This document shows positions 32,343 to 62,195 of a stretch of 64,000 bases of DNA, one piece after another. Both the position numbers and the translations under genes were made by a program. Below the pieces are notes generated by a model. The model saw nothing but the letters and a program-made list of their open reading frames with translations, did no database searches and was not told the origin of the DNA. Every line of letters begins with the position of its first letter. The stretch's first letter is position 1. The stretch lies in NCBI GenBank assembly GCA_029261995.1, contig JAJDAF010000010.1:196767-260766 (forward strand). The letters run 5' to 3'. Origin of the DNA: Candidatus Zhuqueibacterota bacterium (GTDB lineage Bacteria > Zhuqueibacterota > Zhuqueibacteria > Oceanimicrobiales > Oceanimicrobiaceae).

Positions 32343-33929
32343 ATGAAAAGGTTGGTCTTCTTGCTATGTGTTACAGCCACTGCTTCCGCAATCGGTCAGG
32401 TCACGCACCATGTCTCTTTGGTGGGCAATCTAAACACCGGACGCTATACAAATGATGTTTGGGGCTACGCCGACGATGCCGGCAATGAATACGCAATCGT
32501 CGGCCATCGAACCGGTACTGCGATTGTTCTCGTCACGCCAGACAGCCTGATTGAGGTCGATTTCGTTCCCGGCGTATCTTCGACCTGGCGCGACATCAAA
32601 ACGCACGGGAATTATGCTTACGTGACAGCCGACCGCGGTAACGAGGGCCTGCTTATTCTGGATTTGTCGCCTCTGCCGGACTCCGTGCGAGTTGTCGATA
32701 GATTCGCCAACGCCTTTACCCGGGCACACAACCTTTACATCGAAAACGGGCATGCCTACATTTCTGGCTCAAATAGCGCGCGCGGAGCCGACATCCTGGA
32801 TTTGGCGAATCCGGAAGTCCCGGTCGAGGTAGGCTCGATCACCTTCAATTATTTCCATGACATCTTCACCCGCAACGACACATTGTTTGGCAGCACCGAA
32901 CGCCGGGGCTCCCTCGCAATCTTCGATGTCACTGGTAAGGCGAGGCCGGCGCTTGTGGCGGAGATTCCGTTTCCCGGCGGCGGCATCTCGCACAACAGTT
33001 GGGCGACGCCTGATGGCCAGTTTGTCATGACCACAGAGGAGACCAGCGGTCAGTCGGTGAAGATGTGGGACATCAGCAACCTCGGCAATCCAACGCTGGT
33101 TGACGAATATCTGTCGGGTAGCAGGCTGGCACACAACACGCACATTCAGGGAGATTATGCTTATATCTCGCATTACGCGGATGGCGTGCGCATTCTTGAT
33201 ATTTCCGACCCCAGTCATATGGTAGAGGTTGGTGGCTTTGATACCAACGCCGGCACTTCCGGATTTGCGGGCTGCTGGGGCGCCTATCCATTTACGAACT
33301 CTGGCTACGTTTACGCCTCAGATCAGGACAATGGACTATTTGTGTTGGACTTCGACGGCACCCGCGCCACTCGAATAAACGGGCATGTTTTCGATTCTGA
33401 GACTGGCAAAATACTTAGTGGAGCCCAGGTTGAGGTGCTGGAGAATGGCATCTCTGCCATCAGTAACGTTGATGGCAAATACAAGCTTGGCCTGACCGCT
33501 GGCGGCATCTTCACCTTGAGGGTCAGCAACAATGGTTATGAAACCGCCAACGTATCGGTTATGGTGGGTGATGGCGAGACAGCCAACAAACTCATTTTTC
33601 TGAAGCCTTCCGTAACCACTGGAATCGCCGACGATTCAGGGTTGATTCCAGATGAGTTCAGCGTGGCGCAGAACTATCCGAATCCCTTCAACGGCGGCAC
33701 GACGCTGAGCTACAATCTACCGCTGACAGTCAGAGTCAAAGTGAGCATATTCAACACAGTGGGAAGCGAATTGCGAGTGTTGCAGGACGGCTTGCAACCG
33801 GCAGGACACCACCAGATTCAATGGGATGGCAGGAACGCACAGGGGCATGAGTTGCCGAGCGGGATTTACTATTATCAGATTGATGCCGCCGGTGAGGTGC
33901 TGGCCGGCAAAATGATCATGGTGAAGTAA
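32343..33929 (+). CDS. LVIVD-repeat (choice-of-anchor B) beta-propeller protein with carboxypeptidase-regulatory-like domain and T9SS C-terminal sorting domain
   Basis: A signal peptide is followed by LVIVD-like repeats (AIVLVTP, LLILDL, ADILDL, LAIFDV, VRILDI, LFVLDF). A CarbopepD_reg-like domain (GHVFDSETGKILSGAQVEV) precedes the C-terminal ~80 aa, which carry NYPNPFNGG...YYYQIDAAGE...K, matching the T9SS CTD (TIGR04183). Confidence 0.7.
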   Translation: MKRLVFLLCVTATASAIGQVTHHVSLVGNLNTGRYTNDVWGYADDAGNEYAIVGHRTGTAIVLVTPDSLIEVDFVPGVSSTWRDIKTHGNYAYVTADRGNEGLLILDLSPLPDSVRVVDRFANAFTRAHNLYIENGHAYISGSNSARGADILDLANPEVPVEVGSITFNYFHDIFTRNDTLFGSTERRGSLAIFDVTGKARPALVAEIPFPGGGISHNSWATPDGQFVMTTEETSGQSVKMWDISNLGNPTLVDEYLSGSRLAHNTHIQGDYAYISHYADGVRILDISDPSHMVEVGGFDTNAGTSGFAGCWGAYPFTNSGYVYASDQDNGLFVLDFDGTRATRINGHVFDSETGKILSGAQVEVLENGISAISNVDGKYKLGLTAGGIFTLRVSNNGYETANVSVMVGDGETANKLIFLKPSVTTGIADDSGLIPDEFSVAQNYPNPFNGGTTLSYNLPLTVRVKVSIFNTVGSELRVLQDGLQPAGHHQIQWDGRNAQGHELPSGIYYYQIDAAGEVLAGKMIMVK

Positions 33930-36954: not shown

Positions 36955-38208
36955 TTGGAAGGCTGGAAGACATTGAGCAAGACTAACGTTTACGACACGC
37001 TGAAAGAGCGCGGTTTCATAAAACAGGTGACTGACGAAGATGCGGTTCAAGCCGCGCTGGGCAATAGCCAGGTAACGGCCTACGTTGGATTTGACCCCAC
37101 GGCGGATAGCCTGCACGTCGGTAATCTGCTTGGCTTGATGGCGCTGGCCCACCTTCAGCGCGCAGGGCATCGCCCAATCGCGCTTATCGGGGACGGCACC
37201 GGAATGATCGGAGACCCGAGCGGCAAGACAGAGATGCGTCAACTGCTCACGCGCGAAAAAATCGCATCGAATGCGGAGAGGATCAATGCGCAAATCAATC
37301 GCTACTTTACGATGGACGGACATGCCGGCTTTGCGGTGCGCAACGCCGACTGGCTGCTGGACCTGAATCTGGTGGAATTCCTGCGCGACATCGGCCGCCA
37401 CTTTAGCGTTAACAGAATGCTGGCCGCGGAGTCTTACAAGGTGCGAATGGAGACTGGTCTGTCGTTCATCGAGTTCAACTATCAAATTCTGCAGGCGTAC
37501 GATTTTCTGAAGTTGTTCAGAAGTCATGGTTGTACCCTGCAAATGGGCGGAGACGACCAGTGGGGCAACATTATCGCGGGCACGGATTTGATTCGTCGTG
37601 TGGAAAGCCAACCTGCTGAAGGGCTGACCTGGCCGCTCCTGACCACCGCCGGCGGCCAGAAAATGGGCAAGACCGCCAAAGGCGCGGTATGGCTCGACGG
37701 CAGCAAAACCTCGCCCTACGAGTACTACCAGTACTGGATAAACGTCGATGACCGAGATGTCGTCGCGCTCCTGAAATACTACACGTTTCTGCCAATGACT
37801 GAGATCGAGAAGCTGGCGCGGCTCGAAGGTGCTGAGATTCGTAAGGCAAAAGAGGTGCTCGCCTACGAAACCACCGAAATCACGCACGGCAAAGGTGAGG
37901 CCGATAAGGCGCGCGAAGCCTCCCGCAGCGCTTTCGGTGGCGGAGGACAGGACATCAGCGCCGTACCCACCACCGAAATGGCGTCCAGCCGTTTTGACGC
38001 CGGGGTTCTGGTGGTCGATGTGTTCGCCGAAGTGGGGCTGACTAAGTCGAAGGGCGAAGCGCGGCGGCTCATCCAGCAGGGTGGGGCTTACGTTAACGAG
38101 AAGAAGGTCGAGACAATTGACGATAGCCTGACCATTGCGAACGCCGTGGAAGGAGCACTCATGCTGCGAGCAGGCAAGAAGCGCTACCACCGTCTTATGA
38201 TCAAGTGA
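36955..38208 (+). CDS. tyrS: Tyrosine--tRNA ligase (class I, HIGH/KMSKS with C-terminal S4 domain), TTG start
   Basis: HIGH region (DPTADSLHVGNLLGLM), KMGKT (KMSKS variant), the tyrosine-binding motif GFDPTA...IGDPSGK and a C-terminal S4 domain. An alternative TTG at 36973 would give a more typical N-terminus. Confidence 0.9.
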   Translation: MEGWKTLSKTNVYDTLKERGFIKQVTDEDAVQAALGNSQVTAYVGFDPTADSLHVGNLLGLMALAHLQRAGHRPIALIGDGTGMIGDPSGKTEMRQLLTREKIASNAERINAQINRYFTMDGHAGFAVRNADWLLDLNLVEFLRDIGRHFSVNRMLAAESYKVRMETGLSFIEFNYQILQAYDFLKLFRSHGCTLQMGGDDQWGNIIAGTDLIRRVESQPAEGLTWPLLTTAGGQKMGKTAKGAVWLDGSKTSPYEYYQYWINVDDRDVVALLKYYTFLPMTEIEKLARLEGAEIRKAKEVLAYETTEITHGKGEADKAREASRSAFGGGGQDISAVPTTEMASSRFDAGVLVVDVFAEVGLTKSKGEARRLIQQGGAYVNEKKVETIDDSLTIANAVEGALMLRAGKKRYHRLMIK

Positions 38209-38560
38209 GTCAGTCACGCTGCAGAACCACCTGCAATCCAGTTGCGGCAGCGATCTGCGCCAGGAGCTATTTTTTCCTTGAATTCGTTGCAAAATATTCA
38301 TTTCTTCCCCAATCGTAATTGTAACTACTAGGATTGCACGTGGTTCATCTGAAGTTCCTGCGAAGATCTTCGATTGGCTTTGTGAGTTCACTCCGGGTGG
38401 CAGATGGGCTCTGGAGGGTTCGGAACAGGCCACTTGACATTGAACAAAGAGTTGTTGATTTGATGCAAATTGTTTGTATGGCCCGCTTGCCGTCTCACCG
38501 TCAGGTCTTCACGTCGCCATGTGTAAACAATCGATTTCTGCAAAAGCGAAGGAGAGAAAC

Positions 38561-39808
38561 ATGCGATTTGCGCAACGCAACATAATCACCCTGAACACGG
38601 TTTTCCTGACCACGCTCATACTCGCTGCTTGGGCCGGACGTGGCGTCGCCCAGGAGATTCCGGAGTCGGTGCTGGACATCTTCGATGAAAGCTGTGCGTT
38701 CTCTGGCTGTCATGCCGGTCCGAATTCCCCGAATGGCCTGGATTTGACGGAAGATTTTGCCTTGGCGTCGCTCGTAAACCGGCCGAGCCGCGACTTCGGA
38801 AACGAAATCTTAAGAGTGCAGCCGCGGAACCCGGCGCGTAGCTATCTCATAATGAAAATAAAAGACGACCCGGCTATCAAAGGCGGAAGTATGCCGCAAA
38901 ATGGCAAGCCCTTGCCATCGTCTCAAGTCAAAATTCTGGAAGATTGGATCAATTCACTACCGGCTGATTTGAAAGCAAAGTCGCCGGCGCGAGAATACGC
39001 CGAAGCGTTTGCCGGCGTGTCGCTCTCGACCCTGCCGACGACACAGACGCTCGAGAAAGGCTTTTTTGCCTACCGGATTTCACACAGATGGCGCGGCAAT
39101 GTCAAGAGCGGCTTCGCCAATTTCTACGGCCTCGATGGCGGCGCGAGCATCTTTACGGAATTGCTATTTGCTTTGAACAACGATTTGAGCGCGTCGGTTG
39201 GGCGTGCGAATCAGGATGCAACATTTGAGTTTGCCGGCAAGTGGCGATTCCTGAAGGAAAAGTCGAGTGGCGGCACGCCGATTTCGGCCGCACTCGTGGC
39301 TGGGCTCGACTGGAACACACGCAAGAATCCCATCGGCGTCACCGGACCGCTGGACCGTACGGACAGCGAACGATTTCATTGGTTTGCGCAAGTGCCTCTG
39401 TCAAAACAGGTGCACGATAAGTTTTCCATTCTGTTTGTTCCGGGCGTGCTCCTCAACGGCAATGTGCAACTGGATGATGAAGATGCTATCGTCACTCTCG
39501 GCTTCGGCGCCAGGCTTCACTTTGGGTCGGATTTCTCCCTGTTTGTGGAAGGCGTTCCCATCGTTGCCGGCTCAGACGGAGCCGCTGTAGTCGGAGGCCC
39601 TCGACCTGAAAGGGGGGACCGGGTGTTTAACGACGGCTTCACCGTGGGCCTCGAGAAGCGCGTCGGCGGTCATGTTTTTCATGTTTACCTGACTAACTCG
39701 CTAGGGTTGGCCACCAGCCACTCCATGAGCGGCGCTGACTTTGATTTCACCGAGCGCGATCTGCGATTGGGTTTTAACATTTACAGGACCCTGCGTTTGC
39801 CGTTCTAG
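38561..39808 (+). CDS. Fused PSCyt1-like domain (atypical C-x4-CH putative heme motif) + outer-membrane beta-barrel; Cyc2-like porin-cytochrome architecture
   Basis: The ATG at 38561 is preceded by an RBS (aaggagag). After the signal peptide (TLILAAWAGRGVAQE) comes a ~110-aa domain (IFDESCAFSGCHAGPNSPNGLDL...SMPQNGKPLPSSQVKILEDWI) that fits the planctomycete cytochrome C (PSCyt1) pattern but with CX4CH. The C-terminal ~250 aa are amphipathic beta-strands ending in the OMP-signature terminal Phe (...YRTLRLPF). The ORF track start at 38474 (TTG) is upstream. Confidence 0.5.
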   Translation: MRFAQRNIITLNTVFLTTLILAAWAGRGVAQEIPESVLDIFDESCAFSGCHAGPNSPNGLDLTEDFALASLVNRPSRDFGNEILRVQPRNPARSYLIMKIKDDPAIKGGSMPQNGKPLPSSQVKILEDWINSLPADLKAKSPAREYAEAFAGVSLSTLPTTQTLEKGFFAYRISHRWRGNVKSGFANFYGLDGGASIFTELLFALNNDLSASVGRANQDATFEFAGKWRFLKEKSSGGTPISAALVAGLDWNTRKNPIGVTGPLDRTDSERFHWFAQVPLSKQVHDKFSILFVPGVLLNGNVQLDDEDAIVTLGFGARLHFGSDFSLFVEGVPIVAGSDGAAVVGGPRPERGDRVFNDGFTVGLEKRVGGHVFHVYLTNSLGLATSHSMSGADFDFTERDLRLGFNIYRTLRLPF

Positions 39809-39888
39809 TCGGGAACATTCCACGCAACTAAAGTGTTGAGCAGGTCGCGGTCAACATGTGAGTACAGATTTTATGGAGATTCAGGGAC

Positions 39889-40305
39889 ATGAGGCACACT
39901 GCTTTCTTGAGCACGATTATTCTCGCCGTCAGTTTGATCGCGGCATGTGAGCACAGCAAGACGCTGGCCCCCGAGGCCGCTGAACCAACACTTTCCAACA
40001 TTCAGAATACCATTTTCAGTCAAAAATGTGCCACTTCGGGGTGCCATGTACCCGGCGGCAACGGCCCGATGCCGATGCGTACGAGCCAGGAATCGTTTTC
40101 CAATCTAGTGGGCGTGCCCGCAAGCCAAAGTACCGGCCTGAACCGGGTGACCTCGGGAGATCCCGACAACAGTTATCTGCTACAGAAGCTGGAAGGCGCG
40201 CCGGGCATTCAGGGCGAACGGATGCCTCTTGGCGGCGCGGCCCTCGCCGGTGAACAGATCGAGTTGATTCGCGACTGGATTTCGACCGGAGCTGCGAACA
40301 ATTAG
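39889..40305 (+). CDS. Lipoprotein with stand-alone PSCyt1-like domain (C-x4-CH motif)
   Basis: A lipobox (SLIAACEHS) precedes FSQKCATSGCHVPGGNGPMPM...ERMPLGGAALAGEQIELIRDWISTGA. This is paralogous to the N-domain of the upstream gene with the same CxxSGCH spacing. Confidence 0.5.
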   Translation: MRHTAFLSTIILAVSLIAACEHSKTLAPEAAEPTLSNIQNTIFSQKCATSGCHVPGGNGPMPMRTSQESFSNLVGVPASQSTGLNRVTSGDPDNSYLLQKLEGAPGIQGERMPLGGAALAGEQIELIRDWISTGAANN

Positions 40306-40353
40306 CCAGAATTACCAAGGTTCGAATAACAAAGAAAACTTGCGGAGGTTAAT

Positions 40354-40986
40354 ATGAAGAAGATGATTTTACTGATCGCGGCAGGCGCTGCATCACTCAT
40401 GTTTCTGGCCATTCAGGAGTCAAAACTGCCGGCAAAAACCAGCAATCTGCGTTTGACTCAAATCGCCGGCCTTGAGCTGTTTGAACTCAAGGGCTGCACC
40501 GCATGCCACACGCTTGCGGGCAAAGCAGAAGTAACGCGTACACCGGTTGCAAACAATCGAGATGATGTCTGGTTCAGCGACCACGTTGGGTCCGAGTCCG
40601 AACTTGTGCTCGGCCAGGCCAAAAAGAAACGCAAGAAAAAGAAGCTACTCAAGAAGGAAGTTGCAGCGCTCAATGATTTCCTGTTCGAGTCAGACAGTGC
40701 CGCCAAGAAGCAGATTTTCGGACTCGCAGCAAACCTCAGAAATGGCGCCTACCTGGCCTACCAAAATAACTGCATCGGCTGCCACAGGATCGCCGGTGGA
40801 GGGAAGGAAACCGCGCCCGATTTGACTTTTGCGGCTGACAAGAAAAGCGACCGGAGCTGGCATATCAAAAATCTCAAAAACCCGCAGCAGTTTTCCGCCG
40901 AATCCGTGATGCCGGCGTTTGATGAAAAACTGTCGGATGAGCAGCTTGGGCAGATTGCGGACTACCTGCTGACGCTCAGGAAGTAG
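40354..40986 (+). CDS. Diheme c-type cytochrome (two CXXCH), periplasmic, with poly-lysine linker
   Basis: A signal/anchor precedes the heme motifs CTACH and CIGCH, with a Met ligand candidate (SVMPAF). A K-rich linker (KKKRKKKKLLKK) separates the two heme domains. Confidence 0.7.
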   Translation: MKKMILLIAAGAASLMFLAIQESKLPAKTSNLRLTQIAGLELFELKGCTACHTLAGKAEVTRTPVANNRDDVWFSDHVGSESELVLGQAKKKRKKKKLLKKEVAALNDFLFESDSAAKKQIFGLAANLRNGAYLAYQNNCIGCHRIAGGGKETAPDLTFAADKKSDRSWHIKNLKNPQQFSAESVMPAFDEKLSDEQLGQIADYLLTLRK

Positions 40987-41213
40987 GAAATCTAAACTGG
41001 CATTTGCAACTGGACCAATGAGCGCACTGATGACCAGCTCTTCGATTCCATTTCCGGCGGCTCAGGCAAATGTCAAAGTTTAGAAAAAAACTTCCGCCGG
41101 ACGAAATAAACGCGGCGGTCAGGTTTGTTCGCAGATTTAGAGAAAGATGGACGAAGTTCCGACACTCGGAAGTGACACAACTTTTTTTCTTGACTCATCG
41201 ACCAGGAATTTGA

Positions 41214-41714
41214 TTGCAGATATTCGACAAACAGTCTGACACGGCTGTTCCGCGCAGGCGCTTCTTGAAGGTGGGAATTGCCGCGTTGAACGGTTTTATT
41301 GCTTTTGCACTTGCGATTCCTGGACTCGGCTACTTGCTGACACCAGTTTTGCGGCGTTCGGATGGCGCCTGGATTCCTCTGGGGAATGCCTCGAGTTTGC
41401 AGAGTGCTGAGCCCCGCAAAGCCAGCTTCAAATACACCACCACGGAAGGCTACTCGCGCAACGAGAAAAACGGATTCGCATGGGTCGTCACGGACACCGA
41501 AGAAGCCTCGGGTATTTCGGCTTTTTCGGCAGTTTGTTCCCACACGGGCTGCAATGTCACGTGGCAGTCAAGAGAAAACCATTTCGTTTGTCCCTGTCAT
41601 GACGGACGGTACGACAGACGCGGCGCCGTGGTCTCAGGGCCGCCGCCGCGACCGTTGAGCAAGCTGGCCTTGAAGATGGAGAATGGCCAGGTGTTTGTGC
41701 GTTTGCCGTCGTGA
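41214..41714 (+). CDS. petC: Rieske [2Fe-2S] iron-sulfur subunit of cytochrome bc-type complex (Tat signal)
   Basis: A twin-arginine motif (RRRFLKVGIAAL) and TM anchor are followed by Rieske box I CSHTGC and box II CPCHDGRY. Confidence 0.85.
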   Translation: MQIFDKQSDTAVPRRRFLKVGIAALNGFIAFALAIPGLGYLLTPVLRRSDGAWIPLGNASSLQSAEPRKASFKYTTTEGYSRNEKNGFAWVVTDTEEASGISAFSAVCSHTGCNVTWQSRENHFVCPCHDGRYDRRGAVVSGPPPRPLSKLALKMENGQVFVRLPS

Positions 41715-41768
41715 TGGTGCTAAAGATAGAAGACGTCCTGCGAACTCATAACTGACAAATGACCTGAG

Positions 41769-43430
41769 ATGGAGCCCAATAAAAAAGGATTGTTGCAAGC
41801 GTTCAATCGTTTCCTGAAGGAGCCGATGCCAAAGGGTGTGAATTGGCCGAACGCGCTTGGATCCTGCTTGCTGGCGCTGGTGGTGGTTCAGGTAATCACG
41901 GGAATCCTTCTCTCTCTTTACTACTCCCCAAATGCGGATGTCGCCCATGACAGCGTGCGCTTTATCGAGCAGCAGGTTGTGTTTGGCAGTCTGATTCGCG
42001 GCATCCACTATTTTTCCGCCAGCGCGATGATGGTGGTCATCTTTCTACACCTCGCCCGCACATTTTTTTCCGGGGCATACAAACCGCCGCGCCAGTGGAC
42101 TTGGATTTTCGGCGTGGCTCTGTTGCTGGTGGTGGTCGGTTTTGCCTTTACCGGTTACCTGTTGCCCTGGGACATGAAAGCCTATTTCGCAACCAAAGTC
42201 GGGCTCAACATCGCCGGGATGACGCCGATAGTTGGCGACAGTCTGAAGCGAATCTTGCAGGGCGGCAGCGAGTTGGGCATGCTGACGCTGTCACGCTTTT
42301 TCGCCTTGCACGTGGTCGTTTTGCCGCTGTCTCTCGTTCTATTGATTGCCTTGCACATCACTTACATCAGGATGCACGGTCCAACGCCGCTGGGTCGTGG
42401 GGGCGAGCCAGGCCAAGTTTCCGGTACCTTTTTTCCACAGCAACTTTTCCGAGATTCGGTGGTGGCGGCTGGCGTGATTGGCCTAATATTCGTGCTGGCT
42501 CTCAAGTTTGGCGCGCCATTAGAGGCGCCGGCGGATCCCAACGACACCAGCTACATTCCTCGTCCGGATTGGTATTTCTATGGCGCGTTTCAGCTTTTGA
42601 AATTGTTTGAAGGGCGATTCGAAGTGGTTGGCGCCATCGTTTTGCCCGGGCTGTTTCTGGCTGTCATGGTGTTGCTTCCATTCCTTGATCGCAGCCCCGG
42701 CAGATCCCTCAAAGACCGCCCGGCTGTGGCCTCGATTGGAGCCATTGCCTTGTTGTCAATCGTCATTCTGACCGCGGTTGGGGCCTACACCGGCGAGAAA
42801 CAAAAGGAGAGCCTGACCTCCGACCGGTCAGTCGTCGATGTTGAAGGCGAGATCGAAGAGACTTTTGTGGTCGATCCGGCCATTGGCAAGCAGCTTTACG
42901 ATGGGCTGAAGTGTGCTGAATGTCATGCCCTGGCCTCGGAAGGCGTTAACAATCCGCCGGGCCTGGAGTTTTCGGGAAACAAGTACCGGCAGTCCTGGCT
43001 GGTGGCCTATTTGCAGCAACCGCACCGCGTACGCTGGCAGGGCAAGAACCGGCGTCCGGTTGCGCGCATGCCCAATTTCGATCTCACGGATCGGGAAGCC
43101 CTCAATCTCTCAGTCTACCTGCTCGAACTGCGGCGGGATAACAAATTCCCCGAACCTGAATTTGACTGGGCGGAAGCGGACAGCGAAATGGTAGATTCCG
43201 GAAAAGAGCTGACCGTAGATTACGGCTGCATGGGCTGCCACCGCATCGGGGACGAAGGCCAGAACGTCGCCCCGGAGTTGAGTCATGCGGGTAGCAAGTT
43301 GCGGGAAGCCTACCTGTTCAGCATCGTTCAAGAGCCAGACAAAGTCGTGCCCGGAACCTCGATGAAAAACTTTCAGCTCGAAGTTGAGGATATTGAGGAT
43401 ATCGTGGCATACTTGCGGCTCTTGGAGTAA
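41769..43430 (+). CDS. petB: Cytochrome b (b6/subunit IV-like, PDWY Qo motif) fused to C-terminal diheme cytochrome c
   Basis: The N-terminal half has cytochrome b helices with conserved His pairs (FLHLARTFF, ALHVVVLP, ALHITYIRMH) and the PDWY motif (IPRPDWYFYG). The C-terminal ~170 aa carry CAECH and CMGCH and end in a typical cytochrome c helix (IVAYLRLLE). Confidence 0.85.
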   Translation: MEPNKKGLLQAFNRFLKEPMPKGVNWPNALGSCLLALVVVQVITGILLSLYYSPNADVAHDSVRFIEQQVVFGSLIRGIHYFSASAMMVVIFLHLARTFFSGAYKPPRQWTWIFGVALLLVVVGFAFTGYLLPWDMKAYFATKVGLNIAGMTPIVGDSLKRILQGGSELGMLTLSRFFALHVVVLPLSLVLLIALHITYIRMHGPTPLGRGGEPGQVSGTFFPQQLFRDSVVAAGVIGLIFVLALKFGAPLEAPADPNDTSYIPRPDWYFYGAFQLLKLFEGRFEVVGAIVLPGLFLAVMVLLPFLDRSPGRSLKDRPAVASIGAIALLSIVILTAVGAYTGEKQKESLTSDRSVVDVEGEIEETFVVDPAIGKQLYDGLKCAECHALASEGVNNPPGLEFSGNKYRQSWLVAYLQQPHRVRWQGKNRRPVARMPNFDLTDREALNLSVYLLELRRDNKFPEPEFDWAEADSEMVDSGKELTVDYGCMGCHRIGDEGQNVAPELSHAGSKLREAYLFSIVQEPDKVVPGTSMKNFQLEVEDIEDIVAYLRLLE

Positions 43431-43953
43431 GTCGGGCAGGCAGACTTCAGTTTGCGACTTAGAAAGGTCGCGTTAGGGCAGCCATTCAATATTCTCCATT
43501 CTCCTCTACACTAGACATGCGTGTAAAATGTAGCCTTTTCCCAAAGTCGTTGCTGAAATTCGTGCCGTGCCACGTTTTTCCTTTCCTTTTTCCGCACTTA
43601 TCCACATCTGCCGTATCTTAGACTAATGACTGAGTAAATTCTACTCAGAGCGCTCAGATGTTCAAGCCATGATCCCGCTTTTGTTGCTATGAGTGTGGGA
43701 AAATGGTAAGGGTTTTGTATCGGCATGTCGGGCCGGCAAAGCTGGCTGTGCAATGTGAAGGGACTCTCCATCTGCATTATTCCAGGGGCTGCAGCCTGCC
43801 ACGGTTGATAGCCTGACCCGCGCTCTGAGCACTCACGAACAAAATTTAGGGGAGTACCCACACATTTCACGAGCACTGCTGGTTTCAACTTGACATTTGA
43901 CCGGGGGAACTAAGCTACGTCTTGCTGTCATGCAGTGAGTTGAGGAGGTTCAT

Positions 43954-46900
43954 ATGCAGTATAAGCTACTAAGTTCTCTAGTTGTCCTGGTTATGTGCAT
44001 CGCGGCTTTTGGTCCCGCGGTTGCTCAACCTGCCAAGACGCCGCCCGTTGTTACCGGTCCGCAAACACTCTCAGGTTTCGGGGGCAACGCCGGCCTTTAC
44101 GAATTTTTGACCCAGGGAGAGACGGCGCGAGGCGACATCGGTGGCATCTCCACCGCTGAAGATTATTGGGTTTACATCGTCGGAATCGATGCCAGTGGCG
44201 TCACAGGACCCGACGGGCGTCAGATTCAATTCAATTTGCAGAATACGATTCAGGGCGAGACCGAACACCTTGGCATCAGTTTCTCGCTGGACAATCCTGA
44301 CATTGGCGGGTTTGACCTGCTGGAGTGCTACCAATCCAACGGCGGCGGATTGCTGACCCATGGCCTGGTGAGTGCTTCCCTCGATGTCACGGTTTTTGAC
44401 TTGCGTTTCAACTTCTCCAAAGACAACGCGGAAGACGGTTGGACCGTCACACCCTACTATCGCCTGTCGGGCGGTAGTTGGACCCCCTTCTCTGGTGGCT
44501 CGTTCACCGGCAACCCTGCCTTTGATTTCGACGAAGCCAAACTGACTGTCTTCTTTACGAATTCCATCGCAAATTCCGACGCCGCGGACGGCCAGGTCGT
44601 GTTCGACAACTTCTTTGTGCTCGGGCCAATTCCAGAGCCGATCACGGTCGTTTATGTTGATGATGCCTGGCAGGGTCTCGCACCGGGTGACGCAGTGCAA
44701 TTTCCCGGGGAGGACGACGTTCGGGTTATGGGGGTGAATGCATTCGCTACGATTCAGGAAGGCATCGATTCCTTTATCCAGATGCCGCCGGCAGCTCTCA
44801 GGGAAGACAGACTTTTGCCGCAGGCGGAAGCTGTTGAAGAAATCACGGTACTCGACTTAAATGTTGCGCCTGGAACCTACCAGGAAAATGTGGTCATTCC
44901 CTTTCCAGCACGGCTTCTCGGCTCTGGTAGCGGCAGCGACCCGCTGCAAGACACGATCATTGAGGCCGACCCTCAGAATACCGGATTTCCTGTCATCGAT
45001 ATTGCTGGTTTTGCGCCCGGCGGTGTTTCAGTTAATTCCCGCCTGGAGATTAGAGATCTCAGAGTCACTGGTGCGGTTGGCTCTGGAGATGCACCCAGCG
45101 GCATCTCCATCACCGCCGATGGATTTTTCGATGTCGCGGCCCAAGGCGCGTTGCAGGCCAGTGCCGCCGCCGGCGTATCGGTAATTCAATTCATGACGTT
45201 CAACAACGTCACCGCGGTCGATAATTCGGGCCACGGGATTGCTGTGAATTCTGACGGAATCGTGAGTGACCTACGCGTGGTCAATTGCGAGGTCTCGAAT
45301 AACAGCAACCACGGCATTTTCATCTCCTCCAGCATTGCATCATTCGACAGCCTGATTGTCGATAGCTGCACCATCGAGGACAACGGCATCACCGGAATTA
45401 CCTCAGGGCCGCAGGGTTCTCAGAATGTGGACAACATCCATATCAGTAATTCGACGCTTTCCAGAAATGGCGATGCACTCAGTCCTTCCGGTAGCGGTTC
45501 CGGCGATATCAGCCTGTTCGACTTTAACAGTGACGCTTCAATCACCAACGTTGATGTAACGGGGAACGGCGCGCACATCGGCATCCAGATTCGCGGTGTC
45601 GATAACGCAGGCACTTCTCCGGCGGGCAATGTCCAACTTGACGATGTCACCATTTCCGGGCAGTACCAGCATCCCAATACCTGGGTCGGCTCCGGACTTT
45701 TTATCGCCAACTTCAGTTCACTAAGCAGTGTCGGCCTGAACAATGTTCAGATCGATGTTTCGCCCGTGTCGCCCTCGAAGGATGTCATCAACCTTTATAA
45801 TGATAATATCGATGGCAGCCTGGACATTGGCAATATGCAACTGGGCGGCAATGCTGACCTGGATATTTTGAACAGCGCACCCGCTTCCGTGGATGCCAAC
45901 GATGCGGTGTTCACCAACGCGGCAGACAATTTCGAAATCGAGGACCGCATCTTCCATGGTCTCGATGACAATAGCGTCGGCTTGGTGCGCTGGACGGGCA
46001 ATCAGATTTATCTCACCGCGACAACTTTTTCAGCGCCGGATACCGCGGTAGTTCTCGACAATATCCTTTCTGTTGTGGATAACGGTGACACGCTGAACTT
46101 CGGCGCCGGCAATTACTACACAACTGCCGGGGCGGTGATCAGCAAGAGCCTGACCTTCTTCGGCGGCGCAGGCGTGATTTGCCGGCCACTTGGGGCCACG
46201 TCTGGCGCCTGGGTTACGGTGGATACACTTGTGACTCTGAATCTTGATAGCATCATCTTTGATGGTGCCGGGTACGACATCGGCATCGGCTGCCTGGTGA
46301 GAGGTCGCGGTTATTGCCGTAACCTGACCTTCAGGAACATAGTGGACGACAACGGCGGCGGCATTGCCCTGTGGCTACGCGGCGACCAGCCTGTTGAAGT
46401 TTCCGGCACCACCTTCAGCAATATTGGCGGCCTGTCCCCAGGTGGGTCGATCGCCTACGGCGCCTGCTTCACGGGAACTGGAGTTGTGGGGTCCACCTAT
46501 CGTGGTAACACCTACGTTGGCCGCGGTGCGGGAGCATGGGTTGAATATGGCCTGTTTCTCGATGCAGGTGCGCAGGTGAACATTGTCAGCAACACCTTTT
46601 ACAACCTGCTCGGTTTCACGAGTGTCGAGGGTGTCGTCGGGTCAGCCGGGATTTGCGTGGTTACCAATGGCGGTGGCGGCACATCTGCTTCCATCGACAG
46701 TAGCACAATCTACGACTGCTACAACGGAATCAAAGTTGGCGAATTCGATGGGGACCAGAGCTTCGCGATTATCAGGGATACGGAAATCTACCAGAGCACC
46801 GTTGGCCTTTGTATTGGCGGCGCGTTGTTTGTGAAGGCTGAGGACAACGACATCCACGGCAATGGCACCGGCGTTGTGGTGCGAAATGCCACGGTCTTTG

Positions 46901-48204
46901 ATCTCGACCGCGATCGCATCCAGGATAACGACGACGGCATCATTGTTGAAAATTCGTTTGGCGAAATTGACGAGTGCATCATTTCCAATAATTCAAGTGT
47001 TGGCTTGAGCATCTCGGATGAGTCCAGCACCGGCGTGACCGTGCACCGCAATGAATTCTGCACCAGCGGCGAAATGGGCATGGAGAATCTGGGCCAAACC
47101 ACGGTTGACGCCACCACCAACTGGTGGGGGGACTTCAATGGTCCTGGTGACCAGGGACCCGGCAACGGTGACGGCGTTGGCGTTGGCGTTGACTACAGTA
47201 ACTTCGAAACCAGTAGCCTGTTTGTGGATTCTCCGTGTTCGGAGTTGGCGTTGTGTGAGAACGATGGGGATGTGAATAACTCAGGCAGTCTAACCGCTCT
47301 CGACGCATTAGCAGCTTTCTCTATAGGATTGAACGGAGGCACATTGCCAGCTGAATTTGACGAGCCGGGATTCGAATGTGAAGTCTTGGCTGCAGACGTC
47401 AACTGCAACGGCAGTGTTACTGCGTTAGATGCGCTTGATATCTTCGAACGAGCCTTAGCCCAGTTACCGCCCTCTGCTTGTTTTGCGGGACAGTTGAAGT
47501 TGGACAAAGTAGTGGGCTCGCCACGAATCTCCTTGCTGGCGGTGGAGAGCGGCGCAGAAGAGACTGACAAAATCCGGGTAGCACTGGCTGCCTCCAACTC
47601 GAGTGGGCTTCGTGCCTTCAGTACAACGCTGAAGTTTCCGGCAGAGAGAGTTGATTTTCTTCGCGTGGAGCGCTCTGAAATGACCTCGGATTGGGCTCAG
47701 CTCGATGGTAAGGTACAGAAGGCAGGTGAATTGACGGTCGCTGGATTCAATGTCGAATTTGAAGAATCCAGCGAGTCAACGATTCTCTTTACCTTGGTTT
47801 TCAAGAAGAAGGATGAAGTTGGCCCCATTGAGATTGAATTGACCGGTGCGTATGATGAGCTAGCTGGAGCCATTTGGGAAAGGACCGTGGTCGATGGGAA
47901 TGTAGCTACTCCTGAGGTGTTTGCACTGCGCCAGAATTACCCCAACCCCTTCAATCCTGAAACTCTGATTGAGTACGATATCCCCAGTATCAGCCACGAG
48001 AAGGTGCCAGTGCGACTGACCATCTACAATGTAAAAGGACAGATCGTTCGAACGTTAGTAGATGCACAGAGATCGGTTGGTGCTCACAAGGTTAAGTGGG
48101 ACGGCAGAAACGACCATGGTTTGCAGGTTCCGTCCGGAGCCTACTTCTACACCATCAAAGCCGGAGATTTTAAAGACACAAAACGAATGATGCTGGTGAA
48201 ATAA
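43954..48204 (+). CDS. Giant secreted right-handed beta-helix (pectate-lyase/NosD-like repeats) protein with dockerin-like, cohesin-like and T9SS C-terminal sorting domains
   Basis: A signal peptide is followed by long arrays of parallel beta-helix repeats (NNSNHGIFISSS, IEDNGITGI, IHGNGTGVVVRNA, IQDNDDGIIVEN, ISNNSSVGLSI). A dockerin-like duplicated Ca-binding segment (DVNNSGSLTALDALAAF / DVNCNGSVTALDALDIF) and a cohesin-like module (aa ~1190-1310) follow. The C-terminus reads QNYPNPFNPET...YFYTIKAGDFKDTKRMMLVK, a T9SS CTD. Confidence 0.7.
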   Translation: MQYKLLSSLVVLVMCIAAFGPAVAQPAKTPPVVTGPQTLSGFGGNAGLYEFLTQGETARGDIGGISTAEDYWVYIVGIDASGVTGPDGRQIQFNLQNTIQGETEHLGISFSLDNPDIGGFDLLECYQSNGGGLLTHGLVSASLDVTVFDLRFNFSKDNAEDGWTVTPYYRLSGGSWTPFSGGSFTGNPAFDFDEAKLTVFFTNSIANSDAADGQVVFDNFFVLGPIPEPITVVYVDDAWQGLAPGDAVQFPGEDDVRVMGVNAFATIQEGIDSFIQMPPAALREDRLLPQAEAVEEITVLDLNVAPGTYQENVVIPFPARLLGSGSGSDPLQDTIIEADPQNTGFPVIDIAGFAPGGVSVNSRLEIRDLRVTGAVGSGDAPSGISITADGFFDVAAQGALQASAAAGVSVIQFMTFNNVTAVDNSGHGIAVNSDGIVSDLRVVNCEVSNNSNHGIFISSSIASFDSLIVDSCTIEDNGITGITSGPQGSQNVDNIHISNSTLSRNGDALSPSGSGSGDISLFDFNSDASITNVDVTGNGAHIGIQIRGVDNAGTSPAGNVQLDDVTISGQYQHPNTWVGSGLFIANFSSLSSVGLNNVQIDVSPVSPSKDVINLYNDNIDGSLDIGNMQLGGNADLDILNSAPASVDANDAVFTNAADNFEIEDRIFHGLDDNSVGLVRWTGNQIYLTATTFSAPDTAVVLDNILSVVDNGDTLNFGAGNYYTTAGAVISKSLTFFGGAGVICRPLGATSGAWVTVDTLVTLNLDSIIFDGAGYDIGIGCLVRGRGYCRNLTFRNIVDDNGGGIALWLRGDQPVEVSGTTFSNIGGLSPGGSIAYGACFTGTGVVGSTYRGNTYVGRGAGAWVEYGLFLDAGAQVNIVSNTFYNLLGFTSVEGVVGSAGICVVTNGGGGTSASIDSSTIYDCYNGIKVGEFDGDQSFAIIRDTEIYQSTVGLCIGGALFVKAEDNDIHGNGTGVVVRNATVFDLDRDRIQDNDDGIIVENSFGEIDECIISNNSSVGLSISDESSTGVTVHRNEFCTSGEMGMENLGQTTVDATTNWWGDFNGPGDQGPGNGDGVGVGVDYSNFETSSLFVDSPCSELALCENDGDVNNSGSLTALDALAAFSIGLNGGTLPAEFDEPGFECEVLAADVNCNGSVTALDALDIFERALAQLPPSACFAGQLKLDKVVGSPRISLLAVESGAEETDKIRVALAASNSSGLRAFSTTLKFPAERVDFLRVERSEMTSDWAQLDGKVQKAGELTVAGFNVEFEESSESTILFTLVFKKKDEVGPIEIELTGAYDELAGAIWERTVVDGNVATPEVFALRQNYPNPFNPETLIEYDIPSISHEKVPVRLTIYNVKGQIVRTLVDAQRSVGAHKVKWDGRNDHGLQVPSGAYFYTIKAGDFKDTKRMMLVK

Positions 48205-48244
48205 GGGCCAGCTTCATTCCTTGTTCAAAAAAGGAGATTTAGGT

Positions 48245-49285
48245 ATGATGAGCATTTTTCGACCGGCGAGTTGGCTGCTTTCCGCGACCACCTTTGTATC
48301 GCTAGCGTTTGGCCAGCCCCAGCTTGATCTTAGCCCGCCACTAAGCGTGGATGTGGAGCCACCGCCAGGACAGACGGTGATAATCCCGTTGACGTTGACT
48401 AATACGGGCGCAGAGCAAGTCAAAGCTGTCACTTTCGATTTCACCTTTCCGACTGCTAATCTGACGTATGTCGGGCTTGACACTGTTGGCACGCTGACTG
48501 GTGGCTGGACTCAAATGTCGGGACAGGAAAACACGCCGGGCGTGGTCTCAATACTGGGTTTCGGTAGTGTTGCTGCAGCTCAGACAGGTGTCTTGGTGAA
48601 TGTAACGTTTCAGTCGAAAGACCAATCTGGTGTTGGTCTTCTGCAACTTAGCAACTTCCAGGATCACGTCGCCGGCGCCACCACCACCGACGGCACCCTC
48701 AACAGCACCGTCCCAGTCGAGCTTGCCTCGTTCTCCGCCCAAATCGCCGACCAGGCAGTTGAGCTGAGTTGGCTCACCATCAGCGAAAGCAACAACTTCG
48801 GCTTCGATGTTGAAGAAAGCGCGGACGGCGAAGCTTTTACAAAGATCGGTTTTGTGAAAGGCCACGGCACCACGCTGGCCGAGCAACGCTACCAGTTTAT
48901 CGATAGCGACGTGCGGCCCGGCGCCCACTACTACCGGTTGAGGCAAATCGATTTCGACGGCGCCTTTGAATATTCCAGCACCCTGCAAGTGAACATGGCC
49001 GCGCCGCAGACGTTTGCCCTGGCGCAGAACTACCCGAATCCATTCAATCCGGAGACGGCGATTCAGTTTGCCGTGCCTGAAGCCGCGAGCGTGCAAGTGA
49101 CGATTTACAATGCGCTCGGCCGGGCAGTTCGAACTCTGGTAAACGGCGAGTTTGCTCCCGGCACCCACAGCGTCACCTGGGACGGCCGAGACGACAATGG
49201 CCAGCAGGCCGCGAGTGGACTCTATCTTTACACTGTCAAAGCCGGCAAGTTTGTACAGACGCGTAAGATGATTATGCTTCAGTAA
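48245..49285 (+). CDS. Cohesin-like domain protein with T9SS C-terminal sorting domain
   Basis: The ATG at 48245 has an RBS (aaggag). A signal peptide and a cohesin-like beta-sandwich (VIIPLTLTNTGAEQVKAVTFDFTFPTANLTYVGLD...VNVTFQSKDQSGVGLLQLSNF) precede a C-terminal CTD (AQNYPNPFNPETAIQF...LYLYTVKAGKFVQTRKMIMLQ). The ORF track start at 48221 is TTG. Confidence 0.6.
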   Translation: MMSIFRPASWLLSATTFVSLAFGQPQLDLSPPLSVDVEPPPGQTVIIPLTLTNTGAEQVKAVTFDFTFPTANLTYVGLDTVGTLTGGWTQMSGQENTPGVVSILGFGSVAAAQTGVLVNVTFQSKDQSGVGLLQLSNFQDHVAGATTTDGTLNSTVPVELASFSAQIADQAVELSWLTISESNNFGFDVEESADGEAFTKIGFVKGHGTTLAEQRYQFIDSDVRPGAHYYRLRQIDFDGAFEYSSTLQVNMAAPQTFALAQNYPNPFNPETAIQFAVPEAASVQVTIYNALGRAVRTLVNGEFAPGTHSVTWDGRDDNGQQAASGLYLYTVKAGKFVQTRKMIMLQ

Positions 49286-49552: not shown

Positions 49553-52500
49553 CTACCTCACCACTGCTAGTTTTCCTTTTCCGTTCTTCCCGTCGCCCTC
49601 AACATAGAAAATATAAATCCCTGACGCCATCGGAAGACCGTTCTCGTCATTGAGATCCCATTCGACACCACCGTTGCCGTCTGTCTCTTCGATGGTGCGG
49701 ATGAGCCGACCTGAAATATCGAGAATGCGAACCGTCGCTTGCGAGGTGAGACCCGCGATTGTGACGCCGGTATGACCAGCAGACGGACGGCAAGGATTTG
49801 GGTAAGCGTGCACATTATCGAGGTCGGTACTGCTGAAAATCAGCGCTGCCGTGTCGCCTTCGCCAAACCGGATGGCAATGCTATCCGCGCTACGGACATT
49901 GCGCACACGTAGAAAATACTCAATGCCAAACGGCCCAATCGGTGATTCTGGATCGATCTCCAGCAGCACCCGGTCGGGTGATTCAACAACCACAACGGCC
50001 GAGACAACGCGAACGTTGGGAGTGATTTCGTAATTGTCGATAGTGGAAGCCGATTCCGGGTCGAGAGCCAAACTGAATTGAATCTCGAGCCGGGTAGGCA
50101 AGACCAGGTTGACCGCCTCAAGGTAGGGCGACAGGGGCGCTTCCGTCACTTCGAATTCGACACCGCTTCTCGACGTATCAATGGGCGTGCCGTCCAGGTC
50201 GGCGACTCCCGCAACGCTGATCCGGTTTAAGCCCGGGAGCAGCCCCTGGGCGACGGTCAGGACAACCTCGCCATCCAACTTGTGTGAAACGGCTGACTCC
50301 ACAATTCCAGATTGGTTGACCGTGTAGCGGGTTTGATTGCGCACGGATTGGTTCATGCGCTCACTGAACTCTATCTGAATCTGATCGGGCGGCAAATAAG
50401 TCGCGCGCCGCAAAAAAGGCTTCGGTCCCGGCCGTACCCGGAGAGCGGTCGTTTGCCGGCTCTCCGTCTGCGCCGCTCCGCCGGCAACCGCTGAAACGGC
50501 ATACCAGTAGTCGATTCCAGTACTCACTGATGAATCGATGGCAGAGAATGCATCGGTTTGTGCGAAAAGGGCCAACCCATCCCGGCTCAATCCCCGGTAA
50601 ATGTTGAAGCCATCCGCGCCGCCGGCATGTTGCCAGCTCAGTTCAACCAGGGTAGAATCGAGAGGCCGCGCCCGGAAGGCGGTCGGCGTTTGCGGCCCTG
50701 CGAAGTCCGTGACAAACTCGAAGCCCGTTGCTTCCACGCCTGTGTTGAAGTAAAATTCATTGCCGCCGTTGCCGTTCCAATCTGCTACGATGGCAGTGTT
50801 GCTGCGGCTGGGTTTGGCGTGCCAGATGACCTGGTAGGATTCTGTCGCCTCGTTATAGTCCACGATATAAAAATCCGGGAAAATGCTGATGAGAATCTCG
50901 GGACGGCCGTCGTTGTCCACATCTCCCGAAGCAACGCCGCTGTCGAAATCACGCGGCGACTGGAAGCCGAAGAATGCTTGCTCCCAGACATGCGCGAAGT
51001 TATTGTCTGACTTGTTTTTGTAAATGCGAAAGCGCCAGTGGCGACTGTCAAACGCGCTCTCCAGGTTCAGACTCGGGTCGGAGTGGCAGCCGGCAACGAA
51101 TTCCTCCACGCCGTCGCCATCGTAATCACCGTGGGTGAGATAGTCCGTGGCATCCACCAGCGGCAGACGGTCTGACCAGGTGAATTCACTGCGGTTGTCG
51201 CCGCGATTCTCGTGAATAGTAATGTCGCCGTCGCCATCTCCCAGCAGAATTTCCAACTGGCCGTCGCCATCGAAATCGGCAATTTCAGAATGCGGAACTC
51301 CGGTTGTGTTGCTGCCTTGCGTAGGATTGGAGAAGGAATCGACAAGCGCGTATTTGCTCTCCGAGATGACTTCCCACAAGCCGAAGACATCATTTTGCCG
51401 CAGCACAAGCTCGCCTTGGCCGTCCTGGTCAAAATCCGCAAACCGGCTTGCCCACGGGCCGTCTGCATGCCATTTCGGCTGCGTCGGGTATTCGCCAGGC
51501 GCGGCGGCTTCGAAAATCCAGCTTTGTGAGCCGCGGCCCGTCAGGATTTCCAGCAGACCGTCACCGTCAGAATCGCCCCAGTCACGTGGGATAAAAACCT
51601 CGTCACCCGCAAATCGTTCCGTGAACGCGCCGTCTTCTAGCTCGAGGATTGTTAGCGGGCCGAAATTGAAATTGTCGTCGTATTCACTGAGCACAATTTC
51701 CGGCCGGCCGTCTCCATCGAAATCCGCGGGCCTGGCAAGCAGAAATCCGGAAGGAAATGTCAGCTCCGATTCGTCGGTCGCAATGCCGCCCAGCGGCGGC
51801 AAGTCAAGGTTGGCTGTCACCGGCGGGTCGGTGACAGCATTGAGCCCGGCGCCGTTTGCCGCCTCAATCAAGAATTCCATCTGACCCACGAAAATATCTT
51901 GCGTAAAGTGGAAGCGGTGCGTTGTTGTTCGGAATCCGAGTTTCTGTTCCGTGAAGGGGTGCGTAGACTCTTGCTTTCTGAAGAGAATGGCGGCATCGCA
52001 AACGTCGTCGGTTTCGAATTCGATCAGAAGGCTGTGGCGGTCGCCGTCCAGCATGGGCGTGTTGGTCACGCCGGTGATTTTCGGAGGTGAGCGGTCGATG
52101 AAGAACCGAATTTTATCTTCAACGTCGTTGGCACCCTGGTTTGTCGCCACCAGACGTAGGGTGTAAACGCTGTCCTGCAAAGCCGAGGTATCGAGATCGA
52201 ACAGATGCTGATTTCGCACCTGTCTGCCGGTCACTGTTTCGAGCATCTGCCAGCTTTCTGGCGTTTCACCGACCCCGATCTGCAATGAATAACCGGTAAC
52301 AAACGTGCCGCTCGCGGTTCCACGGATGGCGATCGGGCCCCTGGAGAATCCTTCATCGACCTGCGGCGAGATGAGTTCGGCCACTGAGAAGTAGGGTGAT
52401 TCCAGGCTGGCGGCAGCATCGATTCGGCCTGCGGCGAAGAAATTGTCCCAGCCCGGTGTCCCAAGGTCGGTCGAGGAAGTCGTCAGCAGTCCCTTGATAG

Positions 52501-62082: not shown

Positions 62083-62195
62083 TCAAGCCTCTTTTGATTT
62101 GACGCCCTGGCCTGTCCCGGGCGTTTTTTGTTTTGGCACGAATCTTCTTCCAGTGGAAGATTCGCGATTTGGCAAACTGCTGGAGGGATGTTGGG

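Follow-up and report, generated by a model that had tools for sequence, protein, structure and literature searches.

The 138-residue product of the gene at positions 39889-40305 (+ strand) of the DNA analysed here, a 64-kb stretch of Candidatus Zhuqueibacterota contig JAJDAF010000010.1 (hereafter the window), is most likely, to judge from its sequence, a lipid-anchored monoheme c-type cytochrome related to FoxE of Rhodobacter ferrooxidans SW2. Its predicted heme-attachment motif has four residues between the two cysteines (CX4CH) instead of the usual two. The same spacing occurs in a paralogous domain that the gene next upstream joins to an outer-membrane beta-barrel of the DUF5777 family, and in about half of the best-scoring domains of a very large family of relatives.

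The open reading frame (ORF) starts with ATG, has GGAG about 12 nt 5' of the start, and is also called on an independent public contig, where its neighbours are identical. NCBI gives the small protein no name and its partner just the label 'DUF5777 family beta-barrel protein'; a cluster look-up attached no name to either. Residue numbers below refer to the 138-residue product or to the product of the upstream fusion gene, and DNA coordinates refer to the + strand of the window. The features of the small gene are as follows.

39889..40305, +: small cytochrome c lipoprotein gene (predicted), ORF of 138 aa, a single FoxE/PSCyt1-superfamily domain at residues ~30-138
39889..39948, +: predicted signal peptide, read from the sequence, ending in the lipobox I17-A18-A19-C20, with C20 as the predicted lipid-modified Cys
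40027..40047, +: putative CX4CH heme-attachment motif C47-A-T-S-G-C52-H53, read from the sequence; C52 and H53 are invariant among aligned homologs, and H53 is the presumed proximal ligand
40222..40227, +: Met112-Pro113, invariant among aligned small-protein homologs; Met112 is the presumed distal heme ligand

The N-terminus, MRHTAFLSTIILAVSLIAAC, consists of a signal peptide and lipobox, with L16-I17-A18-A19-C20 conforming to the bacterial pattern [LVI][ASTVI][GAS]C, and the Cys that closes the hydrophobic segment is kept in 20 of 23 small-protein homologs. The lipoprotein assignment made in an earlier note on this DNA (the original prediction) is thus borne out. Both hallmarks of a c-type cytochrome, an export signal and a Cys-Xn-Cys-His motif, are present (signal peptide, lipobox and C47-X4-C52-H53). 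Met112 lies 59 residues past H53 and is followed by a helix at residues 121-132, in keeping with the class I arrangement of a Met ~55-65 residues past the heme motif and directly ahead of a C-terminal helix packed against the N-terminal one; we infer ligation from this placement.

The predicted heme domain and its relatives

A profile built from 24 aligned small proteins, namely the window protein and its 23 nearest homologs (alignment A1), matches FoxE in the PDB (5mab) with an E value of 7.5e-11 through both of its heme domains, each of which is homologous to the window domain. In the profile alignment the second Cys and the His of the family fall on the CH of the FoxE motifs CIICH and CTTCH, the first FoxE Cys being two columns closer; RMP falls on RMP in both domains, and W-I..GA falls on W-I..GA. 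The likeness to the FoxE structures (5mab and 5mvo) takes in the helix before the heme motif, the C..CH, a GDP..S loop, RMP, and a C-terminal helix with W-I..GA. The two proteins differ in that FoxE comprises two domains in one soluble chain with CXXCH motifs, whereas the window protein is one 138-residue domain with a lipid anchor and CX4CH. They differ also in context, since FoxE is encoded in foxEYZ with a pyrroloquinoline quinone (PQQ) protein and a transporter, and the window gene lies among genes for the DUF5777 fusion, a diheme cytochrome c, a Rieske protein and a cytochrome b. One source describes FoxE as a periplasmic diheme Fe(II) oxidase with His/Met ligation and, from a comparison of 5MAB with a predicted model of the Rhodoferax ferrireducens homolog, states that its two homologous Met residues each ligate the heme of the other domain (PMC10654088). 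By our own numbering from the profile alignment, the Met residues of the two FoxE RMP motifs are SEQRES M148 and M262.

The same profile matches the C-terminal heme domain of hydrazine synthase alpha (E 1e-4) and cytochrome c6, in which GAMPAFGGRLSDADIANVAAYIADQA aligns with the family segment erMPlggsaLseeqidlireWIaegA. The 'MPAF...' of c6 is thereby set against the family RMPLGG, and the Met of this c6 segment is the axial ligand. Class I monoheme cytochromes in general (c6, c551, mitochondrial c) have the same order of elements as the window domain: an N-terminal helix, the heme motif, a Met about 60 residues on, and a C-terminal helix. The window domain is set apart from them by its length of ~110 residues, an extra conserved 'PGDPDNSYL' loop, and the CX4CH motif. 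An AlphaFold2 (AF2) model of the small protein, with a mean predicted local distance difference test score (pLDDT) of 83 that exceeds 90 from residue 61, has four helices in class I order. All 15 Foldseek matches of this model in the PDB, though weak, are c-type cytochromes (hydrazine synthase, FoxE, PsbV2, c6, OmcF and mitochondrial c).

The original prediction had called the domain PSCyt1-like, a label that holds for the superfamily and not for the window proteins themselves. The Pfam PSCyt1 model (PF07635, 'Planctomycete cytochrome C') is 59 positions long and has a gathering cut-off of 22 bits. Neither the small protein nor the fusion matches it even at E <= 1. It is matched weakly by 13 of the 24 aligned small-protein members, and 8 of 10 sampled multi-domain library relatives, linked to the window domain through the profile, score above the cut-off (23-66 bits); it is the N-terminal part of the domain that the model covers. 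Typical PSCyt1 proteins are the large PSCyt2/PSD1 proteins, not small lipoproteins. Among the relatives, the recurring Pfam matches are PSCyt1, Cytochrome_CBB3 and Cytochrom_C. By these profile comparisons the domain is a divergent member of the PSCyt1/FoxE branch of the class-I-like cytochromes c, with the window copies lying below the Pfam threshold. Against NCBIfam the small protein gives sub-threshold matches only (an SO2930 diheme cytochrome at 0.0014, an LIC11213 lipoprotein, and c6), and a Pfam match to Qn_am_d_aIV (E 0.05) was set aside as spurious.

The paralogous fusion and the spacing of the heme motif

The gene upstream of the small lipoprotein encodes a second copy of the domain:

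38561..39808, +: cytochrome-DUF5777 fusion, with a signal peptide, a predicted cytochrome domain at aa ~30-135, and a DUF5777 outer-membrane beta-barrel at aa 150-415 (DNA 39008-39808); Pfam DUF5777 2.8e-47
38693..38713, +: putative CX4CH of the fusion N-domain, C45-A-F-S-G-C50-H51, read from the sequence; the Met111 codon is at 38891-38893

Aligned by BLASTP, the small protein and the fusion are 32% identical over 137 columns (E 8e-18), and both Cys, the His, 'MP' and 'DWI' share columns. This similarity is far beyond chance, and the small protein and the fusion N-domain are true paralogs, as the original prediction had proposed. Both copies have exactly four residues between the Cys pair, followed by His (CATSGCH and CAFSGCH), and the pairwise alignment that had been suggested as a check places the Cys residues in equivalent positions. 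We found 73 fusion homologs and aligned 38 of them; C45, C50, H51, M111 and P112 are invariant in all 38, at identities as low as 36%. The small protein matches other small proteins with E values of e-27 to e-51 and fusion N-domains with only e-11 to e-24, and by these scores the two lineages are separate orthologous groups. It follows that the duplication is old and that CX4CH has been kept in both lines.

The AF2 model of the fusion has a pLDDT of 87 and a visible barrel, and its heme loop has low pLDDT. The best Foldseek matches of the barrel in the PDB are OmpG, FapF, NanC, KdgM and a COG4313 channel, which we take to indicate a barrel of 12-14 strands. A barrel of that size is too narrow to hold a cytochrome domain of 110 residues, and, going by the model, the even strand number implies that the domain should hang on the periplasmic side.

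The motif itself varies in spacing across the family. The 23 nearest homologs of the small protein comprise 14 with CX4CH, 8 with CXXCH and 1 with CX3CH, and all 24 aligned sequences share the second Cys, the His, M112-P113 and W130. In a wider scan of species-representative genomes, which yielded 423 loci, motifs were counted in loci L001-L085, where 139 domain instances include 96 with CX4CH, 40 with CX2CH, 2 with CX3CH and 1 with no motif. Searching the family profile against 1.84 billion cluster representatives (clusters at 50% identity) returned 40,728 proteins at E <= 1e-3, of which 14,541 also pass E <= 1e-10; many hold 2-8 tandem copies of the domain. The best 150 of these matches contain 381 domains, with CX4CH in 179, CX2CH in 172 and CX3CH in 9, and keep 'MP' in 377; CX4CH is about as frequent as CXXCH, each making up roughly half of the best-scoring domains. 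Two domain copies are present in 96 of the same 150 matches. Among library representatives P0097-P0246, tandem arrays reach 8 copies and proteins reach 3,575 aa.

The CX4CH consensus is C-A-[TVLFI]-[SAG]-G-C-H. When the motif is masked in 509 pooled domains, the nearest neighbour of a CX4CH domain is also CX4CH in 239 of 275 cases, so the spacing behaves as a heritable trait. It also changes between close relatives, as a series of Woeseiaceae orthologs illustrates:

L044, L068, L072, L017, L037, L049, L056: Woeseiaceae spacing series (CX2CH, CX3CH, CX4CH) in domain 2 of two-domain proteins of ~400 aa

These orthologs are 76-83% identical outside the motif, and the same site reads TC--SGCH, TC--AGCH, TC-APGCH, TCSVSGCH or SCASSGCH. 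Because such near-identical proteins differ in the motif, an insertion or deletion of one or two residues between the Cys pair is tolerated. In both spacing classes the His that follows the second Cys stays in register, as does a Phe four positions ahead of the first, and since the Phe is fixed relative to the first Cys, the insertion is located between the two Cys, where the extra residues would bulge out.

Sequence comparison thus presents CX4CH as a common, interchangeable variant in a very large, barely annotated family. This upholds the argument of the original prediction that the motif is functional: the homologs are not overwhelmingly CXXCH or Cys-less (14 of 23 have CX4CH, and 38 of 38 fusions keep the Cys pair), and a degenerate pseudo-motif was rejected because both paralog lineages keep the motif across phyla. 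The motif is also not peculiar to the window operon, which the original prediction had missed, together with the homology to FoxE and the size of the family.

The CX4CH motif as such would not shock a specialist. It is an accepted spacing for heme c attachment and is present in cytochrome c3 and in Geobacter CxxxxCH proteins. Tetraheme cytochrome c3 and the Geobacter CxxxxCH/CxxCH cytochromes (TIGR01904) share the four-residue Cys spacing; they are, however, bis-His multiheme proteins of unrelated fold, whereas the window family is predicted to be a His/Met class-I-like monoheme domain. What appears to be undescribed so far is CX4CH as a co-dominant, freely interchangeable form in such a domain, as well as the size of the FoxE-related family. 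Motifs of the CX2-4CH type are routinely counted as heme-binding in the field (PMC10734462; PMC13386937).

The operon and its recurrence in other genomes

The fusion and the small lipoprotein head a row of five genes, all on the + strand. The fusion is followed after 80 nt by the small lipoprotein, after a further 48 nt by a diheme cytochrome c, after 227 nt by a Rieske protein, and after 54 nt by a cytochrome b:

40354..40986, +: diheme cytochrome c (CTACH, CIGCH); Pfam Cytochrom_C and Cytochrome_CBB3
41214..41714, +: Rieske iron-sulfur subunit of a bc/b6f-type complex; Pfam Rieske 2.8e-11, NCBIfam b6f iron-sulfur subunit 4e-18
41769..43430, +: cytochrome b (b6-like N-part and subunit-IV-like part) fused to two C-terminal cytochrome c domains; Pfam Cytochrome_B 9e-46, Cytochrom_B_C, and Cytochrom_C twice

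These neighbours of the small gene use ordinary CXXCH sites. Among NCBIfam models the cytochrome b scores best against ExtP, which describes a b-type cytochrome from an operon for selenite/tellurite reduction in Geobacter; its 214 bits stay below the cut-off of 290. The operon is flanked upstream by tyrS and smpB and downstream by surface proteins with tails of the type IX secretion system (T9SS). Pfam annotation of 20 flanking genes found only housekeeping and T9SS-tailed proteins, with no cytochrome maturation, oxidase or foxYZ-like genes. A promoter scan of 38200-44000 gave 3 promoter-like sites against 2.5 expected and is uninformative, and a terminator scan of the same interval found none on the + strand. 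Large secreted proteins with FlgD_ig/Por_Secre_tail (T9SS) C-termini are encoded at 32343-33929, 43954-48204, 48221-49285, 49553-53758 and 62133-63569, and include LVIVD, beta-helix, cohesin, subtilase/FG-GAP and lamin-tail types; this richness in T9SS tails fits an FCB-group-like or KSB1/Calditrichota-like organism.

The pair of fusion and small lipoprotein occurs in 12 further loci (L002, L006, L007, L009-L013, L015, L016, L021 and L086), which come from Calditrichota, KSB1, Rhodothermales and Ca. Zhuqueibacter. Another 11 loci, from Acidobacteriota (including Thermoanaerobaculia and Vicinamibacterales) and one Ignavibacteriales, encode a family cytochrome on its own and, directly after it, a separate DUF5777 barrel of 197-289 aa. 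Fusion or fission links the two parts, which are joined in one protein in Calditrichota, KSB1 and Rhodothermales and encoded by adjacent genes in Acidobacteriota. The small cytochrome precedes a diheme cytochrome c in 6 further loci (L004, L006, L007, L008, L021 and L086), and the full operon with Rieske and cytochrome b is also found in L006 (Calditrichaceae) and L007 (KSB1). The literature searched contains no mention of DUF5777, and the recurrent coupling of a FoxE-related family to this barrel appears to be undescribed so far. Locus L007 and two Woeseiaceae loci originate from iron/manganese-oxidising biofilms of an Oslofjord tunnel (PMC10732223).

Several further proteins accompany these loci. 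Directly 5' of the fusion, at L002:5744-6721, L006:1433-2446 and L010:990-1979, a protein of ~330 aa is encoded that has a T9SS sorting tail and matches CBM96 faintly; the window lacks it and has tyrS upstream instead. Large CHRD proteins (CHRD with PKD or Ig repeats) bear the cytochrome domain at their C-terminus at L029:4105-6315, L053:401-2833, L020:4378-6342 and L014:3172-6339. In Acidobacteriota a CHRD-cytochrome protein comes directly before the small CX4CH cytochrome and the stand-alone DUF5777 barrel, and at L002:8653-11580 a CHRD protein with a T9SS tail comes after the small lipoprotein. Two loci, L087 and L088, carry the fusion without the small paralog; there it lies beside a Cytochrome_C554-type multiheme cytochrome, a cNMP-binding/4Fe-4S protein and a c3/c7-like multiheme cytochrome (L087:1866-6971 and L088:10419-13081).

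The locus invites comparison with systems built around Cyc2, a fused monoheme cytochrome-porin that oxidises Fe(II) (PMC8446621). In Acidithiobacillus and neutrophilic iron oxidisers, the Cyc2 systems include Cyc1/CycA1 diheme cytochromes and a PetI bc1 complex. In their layout they follow the same locus logic as the window: a one-heme cytochrome N-terminal to an outer-membrane barrel, then small cytochromes of the periplasm, a diheme cytochrome c and a bc complex. They differ in that the window barrel is DUF5777, resembling barrels of 12-14 strands, and in that its cytochrome part is a full FoxE-type domain of 110 residues, not a short heme peptide. A 361-aa protein at L005:1842-2927, 3' of the CXXCH family member P0011, has CSSCH just past its signal peptide and a barrel-like C-terminus ending in ...LHLYF. 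It has no Pfam match, and its sequence has the look of a fused cytochrome-porin in the manner of Cyc2 but from another family.

Proposed electron relay and rival readings

We infer a chain of carriers in which the small protein would be exported by Sec, lipidated at Cys20, and left facing the periplasm. Heme would be held covalently by Cys47 and Cys52 of a CX4CH that would amount to CXXCH with two residues looped out after the first Cys, and His53 and Met112 would be the axial ligands of the heme iron. The protein would partner with the paralogous cytochrome domain tethered to the 12-14-strand DUF5777 outer-membrane barrel, and would relay electrons between this outer-membrane fusion and, on the inner-membrane side, the diheme cytochrome c and the complex of Rieske protein and cytochrome b. 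The preferred direction, by analogy with FoxE, would be uptake at the outer membrane from Fe(II) or a similar donor. The shuttle role that the original prediction suggested for the small lipoprotein fits the conserved order of fusion, small cytochrome, diheme cytochrome c, Rieske and cytochrome b. Its sequence makes it very probable that the small protein binds heme, and we lean slightly toward a part in electron relay; blending the two, we regard a His/Met monoheme c-type cytochrome that relays electrons as the probable reading overall. Fe(II) oxidation as the process is a tentative idea, more doubtful than probable, put forward because of the homology to FoxE, the predicted His/Met ligation, and the origin of some relatives in iron/manganese biofilms.

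Several observations weigh against this reading. On its own the small protein finds no usable solved relative by phmmer against the PDB (E 0.4-0.6 at best) and matches no cytochrome family in Pfam, so that the homology rests on the profile. The Foldseek similarity of its model to class I cytochromes is weak (E 0.17-9, TM-score 0.22-0.40). According to the source on FoxE, the Met ligands are exchanged between domains, and a protein with a single domain may for this reason not ligate its own heme through Met112. Neither cytochrome c maturation genes nor a terminal oxidase were found in the Pfam-annotated part of the window, ~21.7-63.6 kb. Linkage to a bc complex is seen in only 3 of ~15 fusion loci, and other fusion loci adjoin multiheme cytochromes (L087 and L088) or no redox genes (L002).

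Electrons could instead flow outward. With quinol as their source, they would move via the bc complex and the diheme cytochrome c to the small lipoprotein and on to the fusion, which would deliver them to an acceptor outside the cell or in the periplasm, for instance Fe(III), Mn(IV) or a soluble oxidant. By default bc complexes run in the forward direction, the window cytochrome b is closest to ExtP of a Geobacter-type reduction operon, though below the cut-off, and the fusions of L087 and L088 adjoin C554-type and c3/c7-type multiheme cytochromes that are typical of outward transfer. We nevertheless consider this direction unlikely, given that FoxE, the sole characterised relative, is an Fe(II) oxidase, that His/Met monoheme domains are usually high-potential and ill-suited to reducing Fe(III) minerals, and that a barrel of 12-14 strands is too narrow for the heme domain to contact an external solid. 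A different assembly is suggested by FoxE itself, which consists of two copies of the same domain: the small lipoprotein and the fusion N-domain could form one two-heme module that resembles FoxE and has its Met ligands exchanged. Placed where the DUF5777 channel opens into the periplasm, this module would oxidise a solute entering through the barrel. The Met swap reported for FoxE, whose M148 and M262 sit in the RMP motifs, is in line with this, as are the age of the paralog lineages, which stand side by side in the 12 further loci, and the frequency of tandem domains among relatives (the 96 two-copy proteins of the best 150). The fit of the monomer model to FoxE by Foldseek is also poor despite the sequence homology (root-mean-square deviation 14 A), as would be expected if FoxE is domain-swapped. 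By analogy with FoxE, the small lipoprotein might thus pair with the fusion N-domain or with itself and not close on its own heme. The absence of the small paralog from L087 and L088, the single family domain beside the barrel in six split loci, and the confident compact monomer given by AF2 all speak against a joint module, and we rate it as improbable.

The Cys pair, His and Met need not in principle bind heme at all, as these residues also serve as copper ligands; they could bind copper or another metal, or make up a redox-active disulfide, and the protein would then serve at the outer membrane as a metal chaperone or sensor. In L002 a ZIP transporter and a multicopper oxidase are encoded a few genes upstream; this, a weak CopC-like match in one CHRD relative, and the low pLDDT of the heme loop in the fusion model could be read in this way. 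The profile homology to heme domains of solved structure, the interconversion of the motif with canonical CXXCH in near-identical orthologs, the relatives that pass Pfam cytochrome models, and the company of c-type cytochromes and a bc complex in the same operon make a heme-free protein highly implausible.

In a broader proposal, the fusion and its CX4CH paralog, with or without the CHRD-cytochrome protein, might constitute a new and widespread outer-membrane redox module made of FoxE-type domains, possibly a two-heme unit with swapped Met ligands placed where a small channel opens into the periplasm. The module would oxidise a metal, Fe(II) or another, and supply electrons to a dedicated bc complex. 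We put this forward as a speculation that is unlikely to hold. The genes concerned range over Calditrichota, KSB1, Rhodothermales, Acidobacteriota and Ignavibacteriales, and the module, if real, would be a third type of bacterial iron oxidase beside Cyc2 and MtoAB/PioAB.

Heme counts and annotation pipelines based on CXXCH or on Pfam miss the small CX4CH protein, and treating CX4CH as a routine alternative in His/Met class-I-like domains would improve cytochrome counts in uncultured phyla. The near-identical CX2CH, CX3CH and CX4CH orthologs provide a natural series for studying how much spacing a heme lyase and a heme pocket tolerate. Sediments and iron/manganese biofilms harbour KSB1, Calditrichota, Rhodothermales and Acidobacteriota in abundance, and we know of no pathway for metal oxidation or extracellular electron exchange in these lineages. 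The link between a FoxE-type cytochrome and an outer-membrane barrel beside a bc complex is a testable candidate for either process, and would gain greatly in significance should the module turn out to oxidise iron or another metal.

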